DNA from: an uncultured Gammaproteobacteria bacterium
GTDB taxonomy: Bacteria; Patescibacteriota; Microgenomatia; UBA8517
NCBI GenBank assembly: GCA_964429215.1
Contig: CAYSAY010000002.1
Span: 33,812 to 97,811 of the forward strand
Length of the DNA: 64,000 nt
Direction: 5' to 3'
Positions 1 to 34,406 of the stretch are shown piece after piece. The notes under the pieces are model-generated. The model worked only from the letters and a program-made list of their open reading frames with translations, searched no databases and had not been told where the DNA came from. A program made the translations under genes and the position numbers. The first letter of the stretch is position 1. The number at the start of each line of letters is the position of its first letter.

Positions 1-315
1 TTTTTCAAATAAACTTAAATCTAATTTACCTTCTTTGAATGCTAAGCCGAGATTTTTAGGAAATACTGAATTGATATCAGCTAATACAGTTTTACCAATA
101 TATTTTTCAAGAGGAATATTATCAATTGTTGTTCCTTTATCATCCATGTGTGCAAATGCATCTGCATGAGTTCCTATATGTGTTGACATTTGTAAATATC
201 GAAGTCTCCATCCTTCTTTATCTAAATTATGAATTTGTTTGATGTTAACTTCTGGATCTCCAGGATAAACTGGCATTTTATCAAAAAGAGGTTGTGATAA
301 ATCAATAATTTGCAT
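1..315 (-). CDS. cyclase family protein (kynurenine formamidase-like), C-terminus beyond window start
   Basis: Manual rc translation from ATG at 313-315: MQIIDLSQPLFDKMPVYPGD...STHIGTHADAFAHM, matching the HxGTHxDxPxH cyclase motif. Open to position 1. Not in ORF track because it is partial. Confidence 0.55.
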   Translation of the reverse strand, partial: MQIIDLSQPLFDKMPVYPGDPEVNIKQIHNLDKEGWRLRYLQMSTHIGTHADAFAHMDDKGTTIDNIPLEKYIGKTVLADINSVFPKNLGLAFKEGKLDLSLFEK

Positions 316-338
316 TGAGTTATTTTAACACAAAAAAC

Positions 339-623
339 TTAACCTTTTCCTGAAGTAAATACACTCCTAAAACCTTTTGCCCACTTTTCTAAAGCATCAC
401 CAAAACCGGCAACAATTTGATCAGCTTGTTCAACTGCGTCATCTTCTGCGCCAACAGGTAACTCACCATGATTTTGACTTTCTAATTTTTCGAGAATTCC
501 ATCATAGATAGCCATGCCGGTTTGTAATGCAAGGCTTTCTTTTTCAGTTAAAAACTGTGTTGCAACTTGGTCTGACAAAACTACTTTACCAGTAATCTCT
601 CGTCTGTCGTTATCTTTCTTCAT
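339..623 (-). CDS. small hypothetical protein (~94 aa); the ORF-track N-terminal extension to 872 is probably spurious
   Basis: Internal Met (MKKDNDRREITGKVV...) at 621-623 starts where AT-rich coding composition begins. Upstream of that, the ORF runs over the GC-rich palindromic non-coding island. Confidence 0.4.
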   Translation of the reverse strand: MKKDNDRREITGKVVLSDQVATQFLTEKESLALQTGMAIYDGILEKLESQNHGELPVGAEDDAVEQADQIVAGFGDALEKWAKGFRSVFTSGKG

Positions 624-639
624 ACTATGGGTGATATTA

Positions 640-1250
640 TACCAGCCAATTATTCTGCATTCAACCTTTAGTGATGCATTCTTCCTGCCATACACATTGG
701 CCAAAGGCCAACACCCCTGTAAGCTTTGGGGTGTTTTGTGTTGGGCAGGATCCCTGTAAAGGGATATTTCAGTAGCAATGGTTTTGTTGTTTTGGTGTTC
801 TAACCAAGTGCTTTGCCAAAGGCACTTTTGGAGTTGTTTTCTAGCACTTGGGTAGTTGCCCTGAAAGGGCAAATTGCGACTGAAATGTCATATTTTGTCC
901 GTACGGCTAGCCGTTAACCGTCCAGCGGACGGTAACACGGACAAAAGGCCGTAAATACGGCCAGTTAACGGAGTCGATGGAGCTTCTTCCTGACACCGTT
1001 AACTACCCGTCAGGCGCTCGCAAGCGACTGACTATAAAACCCCTTTTCCTTTTGGCGTATTGCGACCGAGCGAAGCGAGGGAGCAAGAAGACAAGCAATG
1101 CGTTAAGCGAAGCCACGAAGTGGCTGAGCGAGGAAACCCGAGCTCCGCAACAATTCCTTCCCCTTTGACCCCTCCCTTGTTGCTCCGCTAAAACTTCAGA
1201 AATTTGTGGTAAAATAAGTTCGAGCGGAATCGTAAACGCTCACATAAAAA
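640..1250. ncRNA. GC-rich, hairpin-dense non-coding island; candidate large structured RNA of unknown family
   Basis: Many perfect stems with GNRA/UAA-type loops: ccugcc...ggcagg, acacccc-N-ggggugu, uugcccu-gaaa-agggcaa, ccgucc-agc-ggacgg, ggccgua-aa-uacggcc, gccacgaaguggc. GTTAAC occurs three times. GC is clearly higher than flanking DNA. No credible protein; only short ORFs on both strands. Confidence 0.3.
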
Positions 1251-1251
1251 T

Positions 1252-2609: not shown

Positions 2610-4160
2610 TCAATCCTTTTCAAACTTTTGCAAATATTTTCTTAAAAACTCCCTCCAGTCATGATGGTCATCGTCATCGTGACCTTCATCATGCTTATTT
2701 TTGTTACCTATATTTATTTTGTAAGTGTCAGTATCTCTTCCGCTTAATTTACCTGAATACTTTTCTGTTTCCACTTTTCCATTTAAGTCATATATAAAAC
2801 TATCCAAATTATACTTTCCTTTAAGTCCTGTTATTTTTAATTTATATTTACCATTTGCAGGTTTTTCAAAAAGTAATATTTTTACAGGATTGCCTGATTT
2901 GATAGAAGGGTTTGTTAAGCTATTAATTGGTTCTTCAACAAAAACTTGAGTTGGGGCAAGTAAACCGTTTGATGTATATAATTCTAAGTTAAACTGCGGT
3001 TCAATTACAAACATCATATATGAAAGATCAGAGTGGGTTGGTGTAAAAGTATTTATGGCAAGAAAATTATTTCCATATGGAGTTAAGTCATTACGGCTTG
3101 CATATCCAGGGTCATTAATAGTATAAGTTTCGCCAATTTTTCCTGTGGCTACAATAAAATGTCCAGGCTCTTTTAAAATTGCTGGTCTATTATTATTTAA
3201 TTCATTGTCAAGATTTGCAGTTGTTGCATCTAGCCTTTTATATTCAAGTGTTGGAGTTAATAAAGTATCGTGTTGCTTTGTATACCTACTTACTGCAAGC
3301 TAATTAATAAGTCCATTTCTAATGTATCCATCCTTTTGGTTTTTAAGCCAAGTGTTAAGTGTATCGGGCATAACGTTGTGTCCGTGGTATCTCAAAACCA
3401 TAACAGCGGAAGTTAGAGCGCAACCAAATTCATGAATAGTGTTATTAGTAAACCCATATATTTTATTTTTCCACGGTTCACTATATTGTTTTAAACTCGG
3501 AACAGTTAAAAATGGACTAGCTGATGGTATTGCAGACGCAGTCGGTGAGGGAGAAGGCGAAGGCGACGGCGATGGACTTGGGGATGAGGAAGGCGAAGGA
3601 CTCGGTGTTGGGCTAGGTGATGCTGTGGGTGTAGGAGTTGGAGTGATTGTGGGTGCTATAGTTGGCGTTGTAGTCGGTGTTGGAATATCTCCTGTTCGTA
3701 TGCAATCTGTCCATGTAGCTTCATCAGGAGTTGTTCCAGGAATTACACCATACATAATTCTAATTGAGTCATAAGTTGGTGGAGTATCAAAATCAAGTCC
3801 ATATGTTCCATTTGGTAAAACGTGGTAAGTTCCTAGTGGAATTTCGTTACTCCAATAATGACCTGTTCCGCTGTTTTGTTTGCATGCAAGTGATCCATTT
3901 CCGTTTTGGTCTGCACAAAACGGATCAGAAAAGTTATTCCACGGTATTCCCAAATCAGGCGAACTGACATTTGTAATTAAAGATTGACCGTTAGCACGTA
4001 AATATTGAACAACTGCTAATTTATCAACATCTGTTGTTATGGCAAAATCAAGTCGATTGCTGTTAATTGTTGCTTCGTAAGTACAAGTGGATGCAAAGGT
4101 CGATGAAGGAAATACTGCATATAAAATGAGTATCAAAATCAATGTAATTTTGTATCTCAT
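2610..4160 (-). pseudogene. secreted C39-like cysteine peptidase with Pro/Ser/Thr linker, interrupted by one in-frame TAG at 3300-3302
   Basis: ORFs 3300..4160 and 2610..3017 are in the same frame. The 94 codons between them (3018-3299) contain no stop; checked codon by codon. Signal peptide MRYKITLILILILYAVF, a (P/S/T)n linker, catalytic Cys in GCALTSAVMVLRY before the TAG and His in GHFIVATG after it. Context NGLIN-TAG-LAV suggests an original TGG (Trp). Confidence 0.6.
3540..3690. repeat. low-complexity GC-rich repeat encoding the (Pro-Ser/Thr)n linker of the peptidase gene
   Basis: ggcgaaggcgacggcgatgg... on the + strand encodes TPTPTPTASPSPTPSPSPSSSPSPSPSPSPSP on the - strand. Confidence 0.5.
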
Positions 4161-4253
4161 AGCAAATCTATTAATTAAGTTTGAAATTTTTTTAAGCTGC
4201 TGTCAATAGTCATTATTGCTAGACTGCAAGCACTTTTATTATGTGGCTATTAA

Positions 4254-5048
4254 ATGTATGATATGAAAATGAAACTAAATATAATTGGAAAACTGATGTA
4301 CTTACACGAAATTGTTTGGAATTATACAGATTGGTATAAATTGTTGATAAATCGATTGCTTCACAATGTTACTACTATTCTTAGGATGAGAAATGGTATT
4401 TTTATCTTAGGAGGAAATAGAAGTTTGATCGTAGATTTAGCCTCCGAGATATTTATTCACGAAGTATATAATCCAAAAGAGATGAAAATAAATCCAGGGG
4501 ATTTAGTTATTGATATCGGTGCAAATATTGGGGTATTTGGACTATATGCATCTAAAAACTTAGCCTCTATGGTATACGAGATTGAACCATTGGTTGAAAA
4601 TATACCTATAATTAAATCAAATTTTGAGAAGAATAATTTCAAAAATCTAAAAATTCTGAATGTTGCTGTTTCAGACAAAGATGGTTCAGACAAACTATTT
4701 ACTGCAGATTTAGATTCACATGGTCTACTTTTTGATCATAACGTCCAAGGAGGTTTAACTAAATTTAAAATCGTTAAAACAATGACTTTGGAAACCATAA
4801 TTAAAAAAAATAAAATAAATCATATTAATTTTTTAAAAATGGACTGCGAAGGAAGTGAGGGAAATATTTTTAAATCCACCAAATCAAAGACATGGAAAAT
4901 GATTGATAAGGTTGCAATTGAGTATCATGATAACGTGTCGGTTTTGAATCACCAAAATATAGTTAGTAAGCTGACTTCAAATGGGTACAAAACAAGGATT
5001 GTAGAAAACGATAATTTTTTTGGATATATATATGCATGGAGAAATTAG
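4254..5048 (+). CDS. FkbM family methyltransferase
   Basis: VIDIGANIGVFGLYAS motif typical of Methyltransf_21/FkbM; 264 aa. Confidence 0.65.
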   Translation: MYDMKMKLNIIGKLMYLHEIVWNYTDWYKLLINRLLHNVTTILRMRNGIFILGGNRSLIVDLASEIFIHEVYNPKEMKINPGDLVIDIGANIGVFGLYASKNLASMVYEIEPLVENIPIIKSNFEKNNFKNLKILNVAVSDKDGSDKLFTADLDSHGLLFDHNVQGGLTKFKIVKTMTLETIIKKNKINHINFLKMDCEGSEGNIFKSTKSKTWKMIDKVAIEYHDNVSVLNHQNIVSKLTSNGYKTRIVENDNFFGYIYAWRN

Positions 5049-5051
5049 ATT

Positions 5052-5801
5052 GTGAATTTTACTATGAACAGAAATAGAGATTTTTATAATGGTTTTCATA
5101 AATCCTCAACACTCCAAACGAAATTGATTTCTGATAACAATTTCACTTATGAAACAACACTAAAAGTTTTTAATAAACACATAAAATCATCAGATACTGT
5201 TTTGGATGTGGGATGCGGAATTGGTGTTATAAGTTTATATTATGGAAATAAATGTAAATCTGTACATGGAATTGATATTTCTGACAAGGCAATTACATTT
5301 GCAAATGAAAGTGCAAAAAAACTTAAACTTAACCAAAAGATAAAATTTGAAGTTGTTGATTTTCCAAACAAATACTTAGCAAAGAAGTTTGACAAAGTTA
5401 TTTTTTCTGAAACTTTGGAACATATTGAAAATGAAGATTTGGCTCTTCAGTCAATTTCTAAAATGTTGAATAAAAATGGTAATCTGGTTGTTACTGTCCC
5501 ATCTGTCAATTCATTTATCTATAGAATAGGCTTAGCGAAGAAGTTTGATAAAGAAGTGGGGCATTTAAGAAGATACACAGTCGATTTTTTAAAGTCAAGA
5601 TTAGAAAAGAATGGTTTTAAAGTTTTAAAAATTTATAAAAGAGAAGGACTTGTTAGAAATATTCTATTTTTTATAAAACCATTTGGATTTTTAATAAAGT
5701 TTATGAAAGGTTTTATTGGTAAATTTGTTATTTGGTTAGATTCACAAACAATTAAACTTGTTGGGGAATCTCAAATTATAATTGTTGCTACTAAAAAATA
5801 A
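5052..5801 (+). CDS. class I SAM-dependent methyltransferase
   Basis: Motif I VLDVGCGIGVISL, motif post-I DKVIFSETLEH, LVVTVP; 249 aa. Confidence 0.65.
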   Translation: MNFTMNRNRDFYNGFHKSSTLQTKLISDNNFTYETTLKVFNKHIKSSDTVLDVGCGIGVISLYYGNKCKSVHGIDISDKAITFANESAKKLKLNQKIKFEVVDFPNKYLAKKFDKVIFSETLEHIENEDLALQSISKMLNKNGNLVVTVPSVNSFIYRIGLAKKFDKEVGHLRRYTVDFLKSRLEKNGFKVLKIYKREGLVRNILFFIKPFGFLIKFMKGFIGKFVIWLDSQTIKLVGESQIIIVATKK

Positions 5802-7189: not shown

Positions 7190-8173
7190 ATGAAAATAAA
7201 AACAAGTGAACTTCAAAATTTGGTTATGAAAGCCATGACCAAAAAGTATGATGAAGAATATTCATCAAGGATGACAGAACTTGTTATGTTCGGTGAGTTG
7301 TCAGGAAGAGTTTCCCATGGACTAGTTAGATTACTTGTTGGGGGAAATATACTTTTACAAAACCCGATTGGTAAAGCTGAAATAACAAAAGTAACAAAAC
7401 TGTCGTCAATGATTGAAGGAAATGGAAACCCTGGAATGCTGGTTGGTTCGTTAGCATGCGACGAAGTTATTAGAATCGCAAAAGAAAATGATTTTGGGAT
7501 AGTTGGTACTAAAGGTTCGTTCACATCATCAGGTGCATTGACTTATTATCTTGAAAAAATTGCTAAAGAAAATTTAATAGGAATTGTAATGGCAGAATCT
7601 CCAATGAGTACTCCACCAAATGGTGGAATAGAGCCTTTGTTTGGTACTAATCCTATTTCATTTGGTATACCTGCAAACCCTAAACCAGTAATTTTTGATA
7701 TGGGGACAACTGCTATTACTTTTGGTGAACTGCTTAATGCTAAAGCTCTAGGAAAGACAATCCCTGAAGGAGTTGCTCTTGACTCAGCGGGAAATCCTAC
7801 AACTGATCCTGAAAAAGCAATGGAAGGTGCCACTCTTCCATTTGATAAATCATATAAAGGTGCAGGACTTTGTATGATGGTTGAAATACTTGCTGGTACT
7901 TTACCACATTCTGGATATACAGGAATTGACTTAGATAATGGGTGGGGAAGTATGTTTTTGGCATTTTCGCCAAAATTATTGGGTGATGTTGAAGAATTCA
8001 AAAATCGAATGGAAAAAATGATAGATAAAATTAGAAATTCTAAAACAAAAGATGGAAGTAAAGTTAGAATTGTTGGTGAGAAAACATTGGACACAAGAGA
8101 TAAAAATTTAAAATTAGGAGAGATAGAAATTGCTGATAGGATGTATGAATTGTTGGTTGAAGCAATAAAATAG
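7190..8173 (+). CDS. malate/L-lactate dehydrogenase family (Ldh_2) oxidoreductase
   Basis: GELSGRVSHGLVRL (GxxSHGxxR) and overall length/pattern of the Ldh_2 family. Confidence 0.6.
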   Translation: MKIKTSELQNLVMKAMTKKYDEEYSSRMTELVMFGELSGRVSHGLVRLLVGGNILLQNPIGKAEITKVTKLSSMIEGNGNPGMLVGSLACDEVIRIAKENDFGIVGTKGSFTSSGALTYYLEKIAKENLIGIVMAESPMSTPPNGGIEPLFGTNPISFGIPANPKPVIFDMGTTAITFGELLNAKALGKTIPEGVALDSAGNPTTDPEKAMEGATLPFDKSYKGAGLCMMVEILAGTLPHSGYTGIDLDNGWGSMFLAFSPKLLGDVEEFKNRMEKMIDKIRNSKTKDGSKVRIVGEKTLDTRDKNLKLGEIEIADRMYELLVEAIK

Positions 8174-10279: not shown

Positions 10280-11506
10280 ATGAATAGCGTGTATTTAAAT
10301 TATTATTTTAATGGAGAACTTGGTAGAGAGTTAATTTATTTACGGGAGATAGCACTAAGTCATGCCTTACCTCTTGTAGGACTTACTACATCTCATGAAT
10401 GGTTATCTTACGGTCCATTTTATTATTGGATAATGCTTCCTTTCTTTAACTTGTTTCAAGGCAACCCATACAGTTTGTTCTATGTGGTATTTGCTGTTTC
10501 TTTTTTAGGTTTGTTTTTAAACTACTATGTAGTTAATAAGATTATTAATAAAAACATTGCCCTAATTTCAACTATTATGCTTGCCATATCTCCTTTATTA
10601 GTTTGGCAAACAAGGCTTTCTAAATTGCATACTTTCTTTTTTATATTAAGTCCAATACTTATGTATTTACTACATAAATTATGGAATAAAGAAAAAAAAT
10701 ATTTATTTTGGACTGGACTAACATTTGGATTAATGTTTAGTTTCCACTTAAGTCAAATACCACTCTTCGCTGTGATCATATATTTATTATTTATGAAGAA
10801 ATATGATCTTAAAAGCTATGTATTACTCACACTAGGAGTAATAACACCTAATATCGGATTAATTATAGATAACCTTAAGATTTTAATCTGGATTCCTTAC
10901 AGAATAATAAAATATCCAATTGTTGAAATTGGAAATACTTTTCACTCAGTCTATGAGTACTTAGGGAAAAATTTAATTTGGAATAAAGATTTGTGGTTGA
11001 TACCTTTAATTTTAACAATATTTTTATTTATCCATTATGTACGAATAAATTGGAAAAGTTACAAAAATAATTTTATAACTTTTTATTTAATATCGATTAT
11101 TGGTATTACGTTTATAGCAAATATACTTCATGGTGGAGCGCCAGTTCATTACTTTTTACCAATATATACTACGATACCTTTATTTTTGTCGATCTATATA
11201 GCTAAATTAAAATATTGGCCTATTATTACAATAATTATATTTTTTGTAAATTTTAATTTTTACTTTCACTTTGCAAACCCTGATGATTTTATTCCAATAG
11301 CAAGTCAAAACGAATTGGCAAAAAAAACAGTTAATGAAGCAAATGGTAAAGAAATAAATTTAAAACGAATTGGGCCTAATGATAATTATCCTGAAGATTA
11401 TGCACAGAACTATAAATATCTAATTTTGTGGAATGGTGGTAAATTAAGTGAAAATTCTGAATATGTTGTTACCATTAATGAATATGAATACTTTAACCTT
11501 AAATAA
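10280..11506 (+). CDS. polytopic membrane protein, possibly GT-C fold (ArnT/PMT-like) glycosyltransferase
   Basis: 408 aa, many TM helices followed by a soluble C-terminal domain; assignment is by architecture only. Confidence 0.35.
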   Translation: MNSVYLNYYFNGELGRELIYLREIALSHALPLVGLTTSHEWLSYGPFYYWIMLPFFNLFQGNPYSLFYVVFAVSFLGLFLNYYVVNKIINKNIALISTIMLAISPLLVWQTRLSKLHTFFFILSPILMYLLHKLWNKEKKYLFWTGLTFGLMFSFHLSQIPLFAVIIYLLFMKKYDLKSYVLLTLGVITPNIGLIIDNLKILIWIPYRIIKYPIVEIGNTFHSVYEYLGKNLIWNKDLWLIPLILTIFLFIHYVRINWKSYKNNFITFYLISIIGITFIANILHGGAPVHYFLPIYTTIPLFLSIYIAKLKYWPIITIIIFFVNFNFYFHFANPDDFIPIASQNELAKKTVNEANGKEINLKRIGPNDNYPEDYAQNYKYLILWNGGKLSENSEYVVTINEYEYFNLK

Positions 11507-34125: not shown

Positions 34126-34387
34126 GGGGTCGTAGCTCAATTGGTTAGAGCGCTTCCCTGTCGATTTGTGGCAGCTCTTTCTAGCAATATTAAGATGTTA
34201 AATCAGGCTAATTCGGGGAAACCTTTAAAATGGTAATCCCGAGCTAAATCACCGATTAAATCGGTGTAAATGTGTAGAGACTATATACCTGACAACCCTA
34301 GTGGTTGATGAGATAGTCCAAGCTTTAAGGAAACTTAAAGATCGTTGCACGGAAGAGGTTGCGAGTTCGAGTCTCGTCGATCCCGCC
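34126..34387 (+). tRNA. tRNA-Asp (GUC) interrupted by a ~186 nt group I intron (34162-34347) in the anticodon loop
   Basis: Exons: GGGGUCG UA GCUC AAUUGGUUA GAGC G CUUCC CUGU | CAC GGAAG AGGUU GCGAG UUCGAGU CUCGU CGAUCCC G CC. The intron follows U and ends in G. Inside are AAUUCGGGGAAACCU and GUGUAGAGACUAUA, like the J3/4-P4 and P7 elements of small IC3 tRNA introns. A candidate IGS GUGG can pair with exon CUGU. Confidence 0.7.
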
Positions 34388-34406
34388 TAGAGTTTTACAA
34401 TTAAAT

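Follow-up and report, generated by a model that had tools for sequence, protein, structure and literature searches.

Few large bacterial RNAs with elaborate folds are known, and these (OLE, GOLLD, ROOL, raiA) have attracted much interest. ROOL averages 581 nt, and both GOLLD and ROOL are carried by prophages, often beside tRNA genes or tRNA arrays, with a function that is unknown (PMC5737381, PMC12286853). Here we analysed a 64-kb stretch of contig CAYSAY010000002.1 (assembly GCA_964429215.1), referred to below as the window, in which a GC-rich non-coding region of about 600 bases lies near the left end. We find it probable that this region is the folded end of a serine-integrase island, and most likely a large structured RNA outside the described families that carries an attachment (att) half-site at its 3′ end. 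The original prediction for this DNA had offered three alternatives: a large structured non-coding RNA, a cluster of protein-binding sites and the remnant ends of a mobile element. It is partly supported, as two of the three hold together and one is rejected.

A repeated element in Woesebacteria and Microgenomates

Judged from its sequence, window 676-1244 is one complete copy of a ~565-nt element. The element forms a multi-copy family in metagenome-assembled genomes (MAGs) of Woesebacteria and Microgenomates, where full copies measure 565-620 nt. With a 20-nt probe taken from the conserved part of the 5′ domain we found contig L016, which carries two copies and holds a 48-nt stretch identical to the window. 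A 21-nt loop probe taken from that stretch located 17 loci in Woesebacteria and Microgenomates MAGs, eight of them in a single MAG and often at contig ends. The element was also detected in two MAGs labelled Gammaproteobacteria and Micavibrio, labels that we attribute to probable mis-binning. No further copy lies within the 64-kb window.

The original prediction had found no known-family identity for this region, and wider scans agree. With Rfam 15, window 624-1251 gave nothing at the gathering score, and positions 300-1600 searched at E<=10 returned only palindrome-driven miRNA noise (24 bits), with no match to OLE, GOLLD, ROOL, raiA, HEARO, RNase P, tmRNA or group I and II introns. Four further element copies scanned against Rfam at E<=5 had no match. 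The firm match to an Rfam family that the original prediction had named as its refutation did not appear. ARAGORN called neither a tRNA nor a tmRNA over the element region, a BLAST search of phage and plasmid collections with the region found no match, and exact probes from the middle domain, the GAGGAAAC stretch, the 5′ domain and the longer loop each had 0 matches in IMG/VR. A full-text literature search found no paper on Woesebacteria non-coding RNAs.

Several specific identities were considered and set aside. By eye, GAGGAAACCCGAGCUCC resembles the P4/CR-I region of RNase P; it is at the wrong end of the element and has no covariance-model match. A tmRNA- or tRNA-like 3′ end was rejected on the ARAGORN result and on the lack of a flanking T-stem around GUUCGAGC. 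A riboswitch or cis-acting leader was rejected because the downstream genes are heterogeneous. Searches for an intrinsic terminator and a sigma-70 promoter gave weak consensus matches only, none of them on the + strand upstream of helix P1.

In IMG/VR, 11 viral contigs (L034-L044) also contain the element's invariant 21-mer, TTCCCCTTTGACCCCTCCCTT, for example at L043 6474-6494 and 6647-6667. There it is preceded by GGGAACCTACGG, is paired with an inverted copy 100-200 nt away and is associated with long palindromes. We rejected these sites as copies of the element, given that the longer loop probe has no viral match and the palindromic repeat is a different one. The occurrence of the 21-mer in viruses may reflect chance or a shared ligand.

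A conserved fold with compensatory changes

Every hairpin named in the original prediction was found. Folding is much stronger than in shuffled sequence: the minimum free energy (MFE) of the + strand is -232 kcal/mol (z = -5.9), that of the - strand is -231 kcal/mol (z = -9.3), and 0 of 20 shuffles were as good. The parts of the modelled fold, with two sequence features near its 3′ end, are:

676-892, + strand: 5′ domain, eight-helix model (covariance model R1)
684-689/744-749, + strand: P1, CCUGCC/GGCAGG
692-696/737-741, + strand: P1b
699-709, + strand: P2
711-717/728-734, + strand: P3, ACACCCC/GGGGUGU, enclosed by P1
750-765, + strand: P4, GUAA-capped stem
766-779/873-886, + strand: P5
800-812/843-855, + strand: P6
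813-825, + strand: P7
856-872, + strand: P8, GAAA-capped stem
893-1008, + strand: variable middle domain, from inverted repeats I18 and I1 and the MFE fold
893-902/937-946, + strand: three-way junction with hairpins 903-914 and 918-932 (CCGUCC-AGC-GGACGG)
947-962, + strand: middle-domain hairpin
963-975/992-1004, + strand: long hairpin holding two of the three GTTAAC sites
1009-1053, + strand: start of the 3′ domain, with hairpin 1009-1032 (conserved UCGCAA loop), then the conserved C/U-rich linker UAUAAAACCCCUUUUCCUUUU (1033-1053)
1054-1193, + strand: 3′-domain core, present as an exact inverted copy at the end of contig L011 (3′-only, "class B")
1147-1183, + strand: C-loop hairpin, 7-bp stem GCAACAA/UUGUUGC with loop UUCCUUCCCCUUUGACCCCUCCC at 1154-1176
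1207-1215, + strand: TGGTAAAAT, an extended -10-like motif facing outward, TGnTA(A/C/T)AAT in ~10 of 17 copies (not listed by a generic promoter scan)
1219-1244, + strand: terminal arm GTTCGAGCGGAATCGTAAACGCTCACA with hairpin 1222-1226/1237-1241, the predicted attP-derived P half-site of attR

At the window copy, covariance model R1 (217 positions, 62 pairs) scores 239 bits, and it identified nine further copies in related loci. Compensatory changes across relatives, which the original prediction had proposed to look for and which are the generic mark of a structured non-coding RNA, were found to a depth of these 10 copies of the 5′ domain. Pairing in the 5′ domain extends to 94.4% of cells, with 9 covarying pairs; slid-partner controls gave 31-44% paired cells and 0-2 covarying pairs, and none of 500 shuffles reached the observed value. 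One locus (L028) is a natural deletion without P1b-P3, in which P1 is kept as ACCGCC-GCA-GGCGGU, with two compensatory changes and a GCA cap. Over the whole element, alifold recovered 24 pairs with compensatory changes.

The middle domain differs most in sequence between copies while its helices are kept; alignment columns 374-380/406-412 show AU, UA and GC variants. The palindrome that had been reported three times here is CGTTAAC, at 912, 964 and 997, three sites within 92 nt compared with 4 in the remaining 63 kb. Of the three sites in the element, two are the opposite strands of one helix, and this helix covaries, from GUUAACGG/CCGUUAAC to GUUGACGG/CCGUCAA and to GUUUGCGG/CCGCAAG. Because the helix changes to other complementary pairs, GTTAAC is not a conserved site, and the suggestion of a protein-binding cluster marked by the GTTAAC triplet falls with it.

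The 3′ domain (1009-1244) is a mosaic of several haplotypes plus recombinants, such as the copy in L032, and its stems were compared by direct stem tables. The stem of hairpin 1009-1032 covaries around a fixed loop (CGCU/AGCG, GGUAGU/ACUACC, GCCCU/AGGGC). The C-rich loop AAUUCCUUCCCCUUUGACCCCUCCCUU is 100% identical in 19 of the 19 copies found, and the stem that presents it occurs in two wholly different complementary versions, GCAAC/GUUGC and GCAUUCUCC/GGAGAAUGC. Owing to the mosaic haplotypes, MAFFT and RNAalifold applied to 18 copies of the 3′ domain returned 5 pairs only. A long-range pairing between 780-790 and 1031-1041 (I23) was dropped after alignment inspection, as it is not kept in L032 or L020.

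Almost all hairpin loops have the form G-N-N-A on the + strand (GAAA, GUAA, GAGA, GAUA, GACA), and in five of six copies the + strand has the lower MFE and more G-U pairs. We placed the functional strand as + on these three grounds. Together, the conservation, the compensatory changes and the strand-specific loops in 10 related copies argue for the structured-RNA alternative of the original prediction.

The same features bear on the view that the element acts as DNA, for instance as a replication or transfer origin of the excised circle or as a landing pad for an excision or directionality factor, with its hairpins forming cruciforms or single-stranded DNA structures. Strong fold z-scores are found on both strands, the element lies directly beside an att site at the island end, a 27-nt invariant block could bind a protein, and there is no conserved upstream promoter. 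We nevertheless regard a DNA-level role as unlikely. The GNNA loops occur on one strand only, the G-U pairs and MFE favour the + strand in the proportion given above, no iterons, DnaA boxes or AT-rich unwinding region are present, and the idea of a conserved GTTAAC fails. Moreover, the reactions of large serine recombinases (LSRs) need no accessory DNA (PMC3783163), so the ~540 nt that remain beside the terminal arm must serve another purpose.

Islands that carry the element

Three contigs of one MAG each carry a full copy and an inverted 3′-only copy, 8-11 kb apart and with their 3′ ends facing outward. In three islands of this MAG the full element stands at the integrase-distal end, and the related islands are 8-13 kb in size. 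At the other end is an LSR gene that is convergent with a tRNA gene. The order there is the 3′-only copy, a 63-68 nt module (X), the LSR gene, an inverted X and the convergent tRNA 3′ end; the target tRNAs are Ser-CGA, Leu-UAA and Val-GAC. The LSRs of L016, L025 and L031 have the Pfam domains Resolvase, Recombinase and Zn_ribbon_recom, and that of L018 was recognised by tblastn homology. The gene lies after the 3′-only copy in L025 and L031, whereas in L016 it has a copy of the element on either side. Each LSR gene is bracketed by inverted repeats of 63-120 nt (X, or the "tail" in L016). L016 has the joined-ends order: a 260-aa gene, full copy, tail, LSR, tail, short copy. The cargo includes a 273-aa membrane protein on the side of the full copy and an SNase close to the 3′-only copy; L011, a contig from the left of the window, has the same order. 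A phage origin of the cargo was rejected, as PHROGs matched only the SNase and the integrase.

Three types of junction were identified in each of three islands, and the three share a short core, CCCAA or AA(AA). With slashes marking the core, one such set reads ...GGATCCA / CCCAA / TTGCGACC (tRNA to X), ...AACCGGCA / CCCAA / TTGCGACC (element to X) and ...AACCGGCA / CCCAA / AAAAGGGCCC (full element to a flank that is tRNA-Ala). This trio corresponds in sequence to attL, an attP-like site and attR, respectively, which is the pattern of site-specific integration.

A non-autonomous repeat of the miniature inverted-repeat transposable element (MITE), BOX or ERIC type, with hairpins that have no function beyond its own propagation, would also be multi-copy and mosaic, with recombinant haplotypes like that of L032, and would break short-read assemblies as this element does. 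We consider this highly improbable. There are no terminal inverted repeats, the 5′ end (UGUUCUUCCUGCC) and 3′ end (GCGCUCACA) being unrelated, and no copy has a target-site duplication or duplicated flank. At ~565 nt with multi-way junctions, the element is far above the size of known repeats of this type, and it occupies fixed positions in islands instead of scattered intergenic sites, with a single copy in the 64-kb window.

As mechanically called, the LSR open reading frames (ORFs; L025 2585-4198 with a 537-aa product, L031 3967-5307, L016 1828-3375) run through the inverted X or tail repeat, and those of L025 and L031 also run antisense through the tRNA; the true C-termini are probably earlier. 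The L031 gene appears split into blocks 3243-3515 and 3961-5271 and may be a pseudogene. In the same contig, 2851-2895, before the 3′-only copy, is the reverse complement of sequence past the full copy in L030 (~7800-7850; hairpin GGAGACCGAAATGTAACGGTCTCC), possibly a trace of earlier inversions between copies of the element.

Another LSR family, only distantly related to the island LSRs (24-30% identity), was detected at L032 1152-2789 (+) and L021 6271-7668 (+). It is convergent with the very tRNA that comes after the full copy, an arrangement suggestive of islands in tandem at these tRNA genes. Truncated tRNA 5′ fragments lie between the element end and the next intact tRNA at L021 ~7810-7895 (-) and L032 ~2775-2850 (-). 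The former is a Pro-like acceptor plus D arm before tRNA-Pro, and the latter a Gly(GCC)-like 5′ half before tRNA-Gly(UCC).

The window island and its empty site

The window copy lies in the following setting:

624-1251, divergent flanking genes: non-coding intergenic gap between the 94-aa ORF and the guanylate-kinase-like gene
339-623, - strand: 94-aa ORF with gene calls in 4 assemblies, the first of the cargo genes within the island and divergent from the element
1252-1902, + strand: guanylate-kinase-like host gene (Pfam PF00625), the chromosomal flank (B′ side), starting 8 nt past the island end

Synteny through the kinase gene did not lead to further copies: a contig scan was empty, and five relatives (L007-L010) have the kinase with no upstream element. 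In L007, the closest kinase relative (92% nucleotide identity), the order is IMPDH, tRNA-Val(CAC) and kinase, with the tRNA 8 nt from the kinase start. Homology between the window and L007 resumes at 1241, at the 3′ end of the L007 tRNA-Val(CAC), with CACA (1241-1244) shared, and both the element and the island end at 1244. The attR of the window reads ...AAGTTCGAGCGGAATCGTAAACGCTCACA / TAAAAATATG and the empty site of L007 reads ...GGTTCGAGTCCATCCAGATCCACA / CAAAAATATG. In L021 the element end is identical and the flank differs right after ...CGCTCACA. The kinase adjoins tRNA-Val(CAC) without the element in L007, L008 and L010, and L045 provides a second island-free version of the tRNA-Val(CAC) locus. 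The presence/absence polymorphism is base-precise with hybrid att sites, as found for LSR elements.

Around tRNA-Val(CAC) and the kinase, each of the relatives examined has a different arrangement, and the locus is a hot spot of gene gain and loss. L008 has an inserted 730-aa NHL protein, L010 has the tRNA downstream of the kinase, and L045 has an extra 210-aa gene and no kinase.

On the left, segment 1-1193 of contig L011 (10.8 kb) reads the window in reverse. Its positions 10669-10807 are identical to window 1054-1193, in the orientation opposite to L011 1-1193, which places a second, inverted copy of the 3′ core ~10.7 kb to the left. By analogy with the related islands, an island of about 12 kb would be inserted where tRNA-Val(CAC) ends, with window 1 to 1244 as its integrase-distal part; at least 10.9 kb of it were seen and ~13 kb are expected. 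The mobile-element alternative of the original prediction is supported, the element being the integrase-distal terminus of an island with a predicted att half-site in its last ~26 nt. The word remnant does not hold, as this end is intact and conserved, not decayed.

These junctions also bear on whether the element might be a resident host non-coding RNA gene, or a giant 5′ leader of tRNA operons or other genes, that serves as a mere landmark for integrating islands. About 14 of the 17 copies have a co-oriented tRNA or gene within 10-100 nt downstream, and GOLLD and ROOL are also found near tRNAs. The genes downstream are unrelated to one another, however (the kinase, an HD phosphohydrolase, an EEP nuclease, a BipA-like GTPase and various tRNAs), and the closest relative lacks the element at a locus where the boundary is base-precise at the tRNA 3′ end. 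A tRNA often stands right after full copies because the islands integrate into tRNA arrays, and not because of a tRNA-related RNA function; the core is CCCAA in both L018 and L022, and in L022 the flank is a tRNA-Ala. The element also travels with the same cargo genes and LSR. A host gene or leader is, in our view, improbable.

The terminal arm and a possible mechanism

We return to the reading of the element as an island-borne RNA with an att site at its end. The last ~26 nt (GTTCGAGC...CACA) resemble a tRNA T-arm plus acceptor strand. We infer that this segment (GTTCGNGCC...) is a P half-site, predicted to be bound by the LSR, that imitates the T-arm/acceptor end of the tRNA (GGTTCGAGTCC...), the B half-site. 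Inverted TTCG(N)(N)CCGA motifs are present in the P and P′ arms. The motif is 25-26 nt away from the core in P arms, compared with 21-22 nt in the tRNA arms, where it reads GTTC(G/A)A. This is a shift of 4 nt, counted with the central dinucleotide not fixed, and is comparable to the 5 bp by which the corresponding motif of A118-type integrases is shifted (PMC3783163). The P arm GTTCGAGCCGA matches the reverse complement of the P′ arm, CTTCGTGCCGA, and likewise GTTCGCGCCGA matches CTTCGCTCCGA, giving an imperfect palindrome of ~56 bp.

Under the proposed mechanism, the LSR would read the T-loop motif of the tRNA, and the mimicry would let the island use many different tRNAs. The ~540 nt upstream of the arm would be transcribed on the + strand as a large ornate RNA borne by the island. 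In the circular island this RNA would read outward into X, antisense to the LSR gene, and in the integrated island it would read into the downstream host gene or tRNA array. The outward TGnTAAAAT just inside the island end probably restores a promoter to the host gene that the island displaced. Our best guess for the C-rich loop is that it controls some function of the island, for example LSR expression, by binding a protein or a G-rich or Shine-Dalgarno-like partner. With its CCUCC core, the loop is complementary at 9 of 10 positions to AAGGAGUCAAA, which in L018 and L031 lies ahead of an in-frame TTG start of the LSR; this complementarity is absent in L025 and L016. We treat it as a lead, not a finding.

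A bolder version would have a new class of ornate RNA built into tRNA-targeting serine-integrase islands of candidate phyla radiation (CPR) bacteria, with a 3′ arm that is both attP half-site and transcript end, read-through that reports the state of the island, and a C-rich loop that controls integrase expression or excision. Taken as a whole this is speculative, and we would not expect all of it to hold.

Several observations weigh against a structured RNA that ends in an LSR site. The two strands of the window copy fold about equally well. The case for an RNA depends on 10 copies that are fairly similar to one another (79% column identity) and in which most pairs are invariant, and covariation in the terminal hairpin may reflect att-site evolution instead of RNA structure. 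No conserved promoter precedes the 5′ domain, and the L016b and L032 copies start 12-27 nt past the upstream ORF. As to the island, the LSR and attL of the window island were not seen, since L011 stops inside the 3′-only copy; no LSR lies within the 64-kb window, and a search for attL through IMPDH and GMP-reductase homologues reached only other organisms. A simple LSR prophage would not be expected to show the intact element-X junction that is present within integrated islands. The zinc-ribbon (ZD) motif of A118-type integrases is shifted by 5 bp between attB and attP (PMC3783163), and the shift found here is 4 nt. Finally, MAGs may mix strains, so the copy number per genome is uncertain.

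Flanking sequence and other features of the window

The window copy is GC-rich, as the original prediction had stated, with 0.49-0.54 GC in 200-nt windows across 801-1200 and a mean of 0.326 for the window, and 624-1251 is the sole non-coding GC island within the 64 kb. Another GC-rich stretch, at 3400-3700, is coding, and encodes the PT/PS-rich linker of a 286-aa Peptidase_C39-like protein (3300-4160, -). The ORFs inside the element had been called spurious, and the two at 977-1168 and 1060-1191 are indeed not called as genes in any public assembly of the source organism.

The 94-aa ORF has only 4 homologues (82-97% identity), all on contigs that end 80-205 nt into the element, and it was these contigs that showed which parts of the element region are conserved. 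In four public assemblies of the source organism, contigs break at 732, 951, 1053, 1163 and 1193, and one contig (L005) spans the element region unchanged. The k141 contig breaks at 1053 and 1193 are explained by the inverted repeat of window 1054-1193 in L011.

Elsewhere in the window, 34127-34390 (+) holds a tRNA gene interrupted by an Rfam group I intron (34146-34340, 88.5 bits). Its exons, GGGGTCGTAGCTCAATTGGTTAGAGCGCTTCCCTG... and ...GCACGGAAGAGGTTGCGAGTTCGAGTCTCGTCGATCCCGCC, are visible, and ARAGORN does not call the gene.

Comparison with known systems

If the reading given here is correct, the element adds a further ornate-RNA family in little-studied CPR bacteria, and its small and simple integrase island would offer a compact system for the role of such RNAs in mobile elements. 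Serine integrases are widely used in genome engineering. An LSR that recognises the T-arm common to all tRNAs, and whose attP arm mimics that T-arm, would choose its targets in a way that is unusual for this enzyme family. Should the element not be transcribed, it would still be a well-defined island end and att site.

The element resembles GOLLD (RF01687) and ROOL (RF03087) in its size class, its many helices and junctions, its carriage by mobile DNA and its proximity to tRNAs. It differs in having no sequence or structure match to them even at E<=10, in its CPR host, and in its small LSR island without phage-like genes (PHROGs). Moreover, the 3′ end of the element would double as an att half-site, and a second, 3′-only copy lies upstream of the integrase gene.

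With IS200/IS605 TnpB right-end RNAs (omega RNA or reRNA) it shares a 3′ boundary of a structured RNA that is also the end of a mobile element, from which the RNA would read into the flank. Unlike those RNAs, it has no TnpB or IscB nearby and no Rfam HEARO match, is two to three times larger, and would owe its mobility to an LSR.

The islands resemble the tRNA and tmRNA islands of tyrosine integrases in their insertion at tRNA 3′ ends, with the integrase gene beside the tRNA, variable cargo and a hot-spot locus. They differ in their serine recombinase and in sharing only 2-5 nt at the junctions, with no long direct repeat of the tRNA 3′ end. Targeting of tRNA 3′ ends is usual for tyrosine integrases and not for LSRs, and these islands are unlike the usual LSR elements in that they use the 3′ ends of several different tRNAs.

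The predicted att sites themselves are closest to the attP and attR sites of large serine integrases (A118/LI, phiC31, Bxb1). They share with these an LSR of Resolvase, Recombinase and zinc-ribbon domains, a set of junctions with a short core, half-sites that are imperfect inverted repeats, and a distal motif that is nearer to the core in the bacterial site than in that of the element. Known LSR sites, however, are ~40-50 bp long without flanking structure, whereas the P arm described here is the tail of a conserved ~565-nt element, the motif shift is 4 nt instead of 5, and inverted repeats of 63-120 nt bracket the LSR genes of the related islands.

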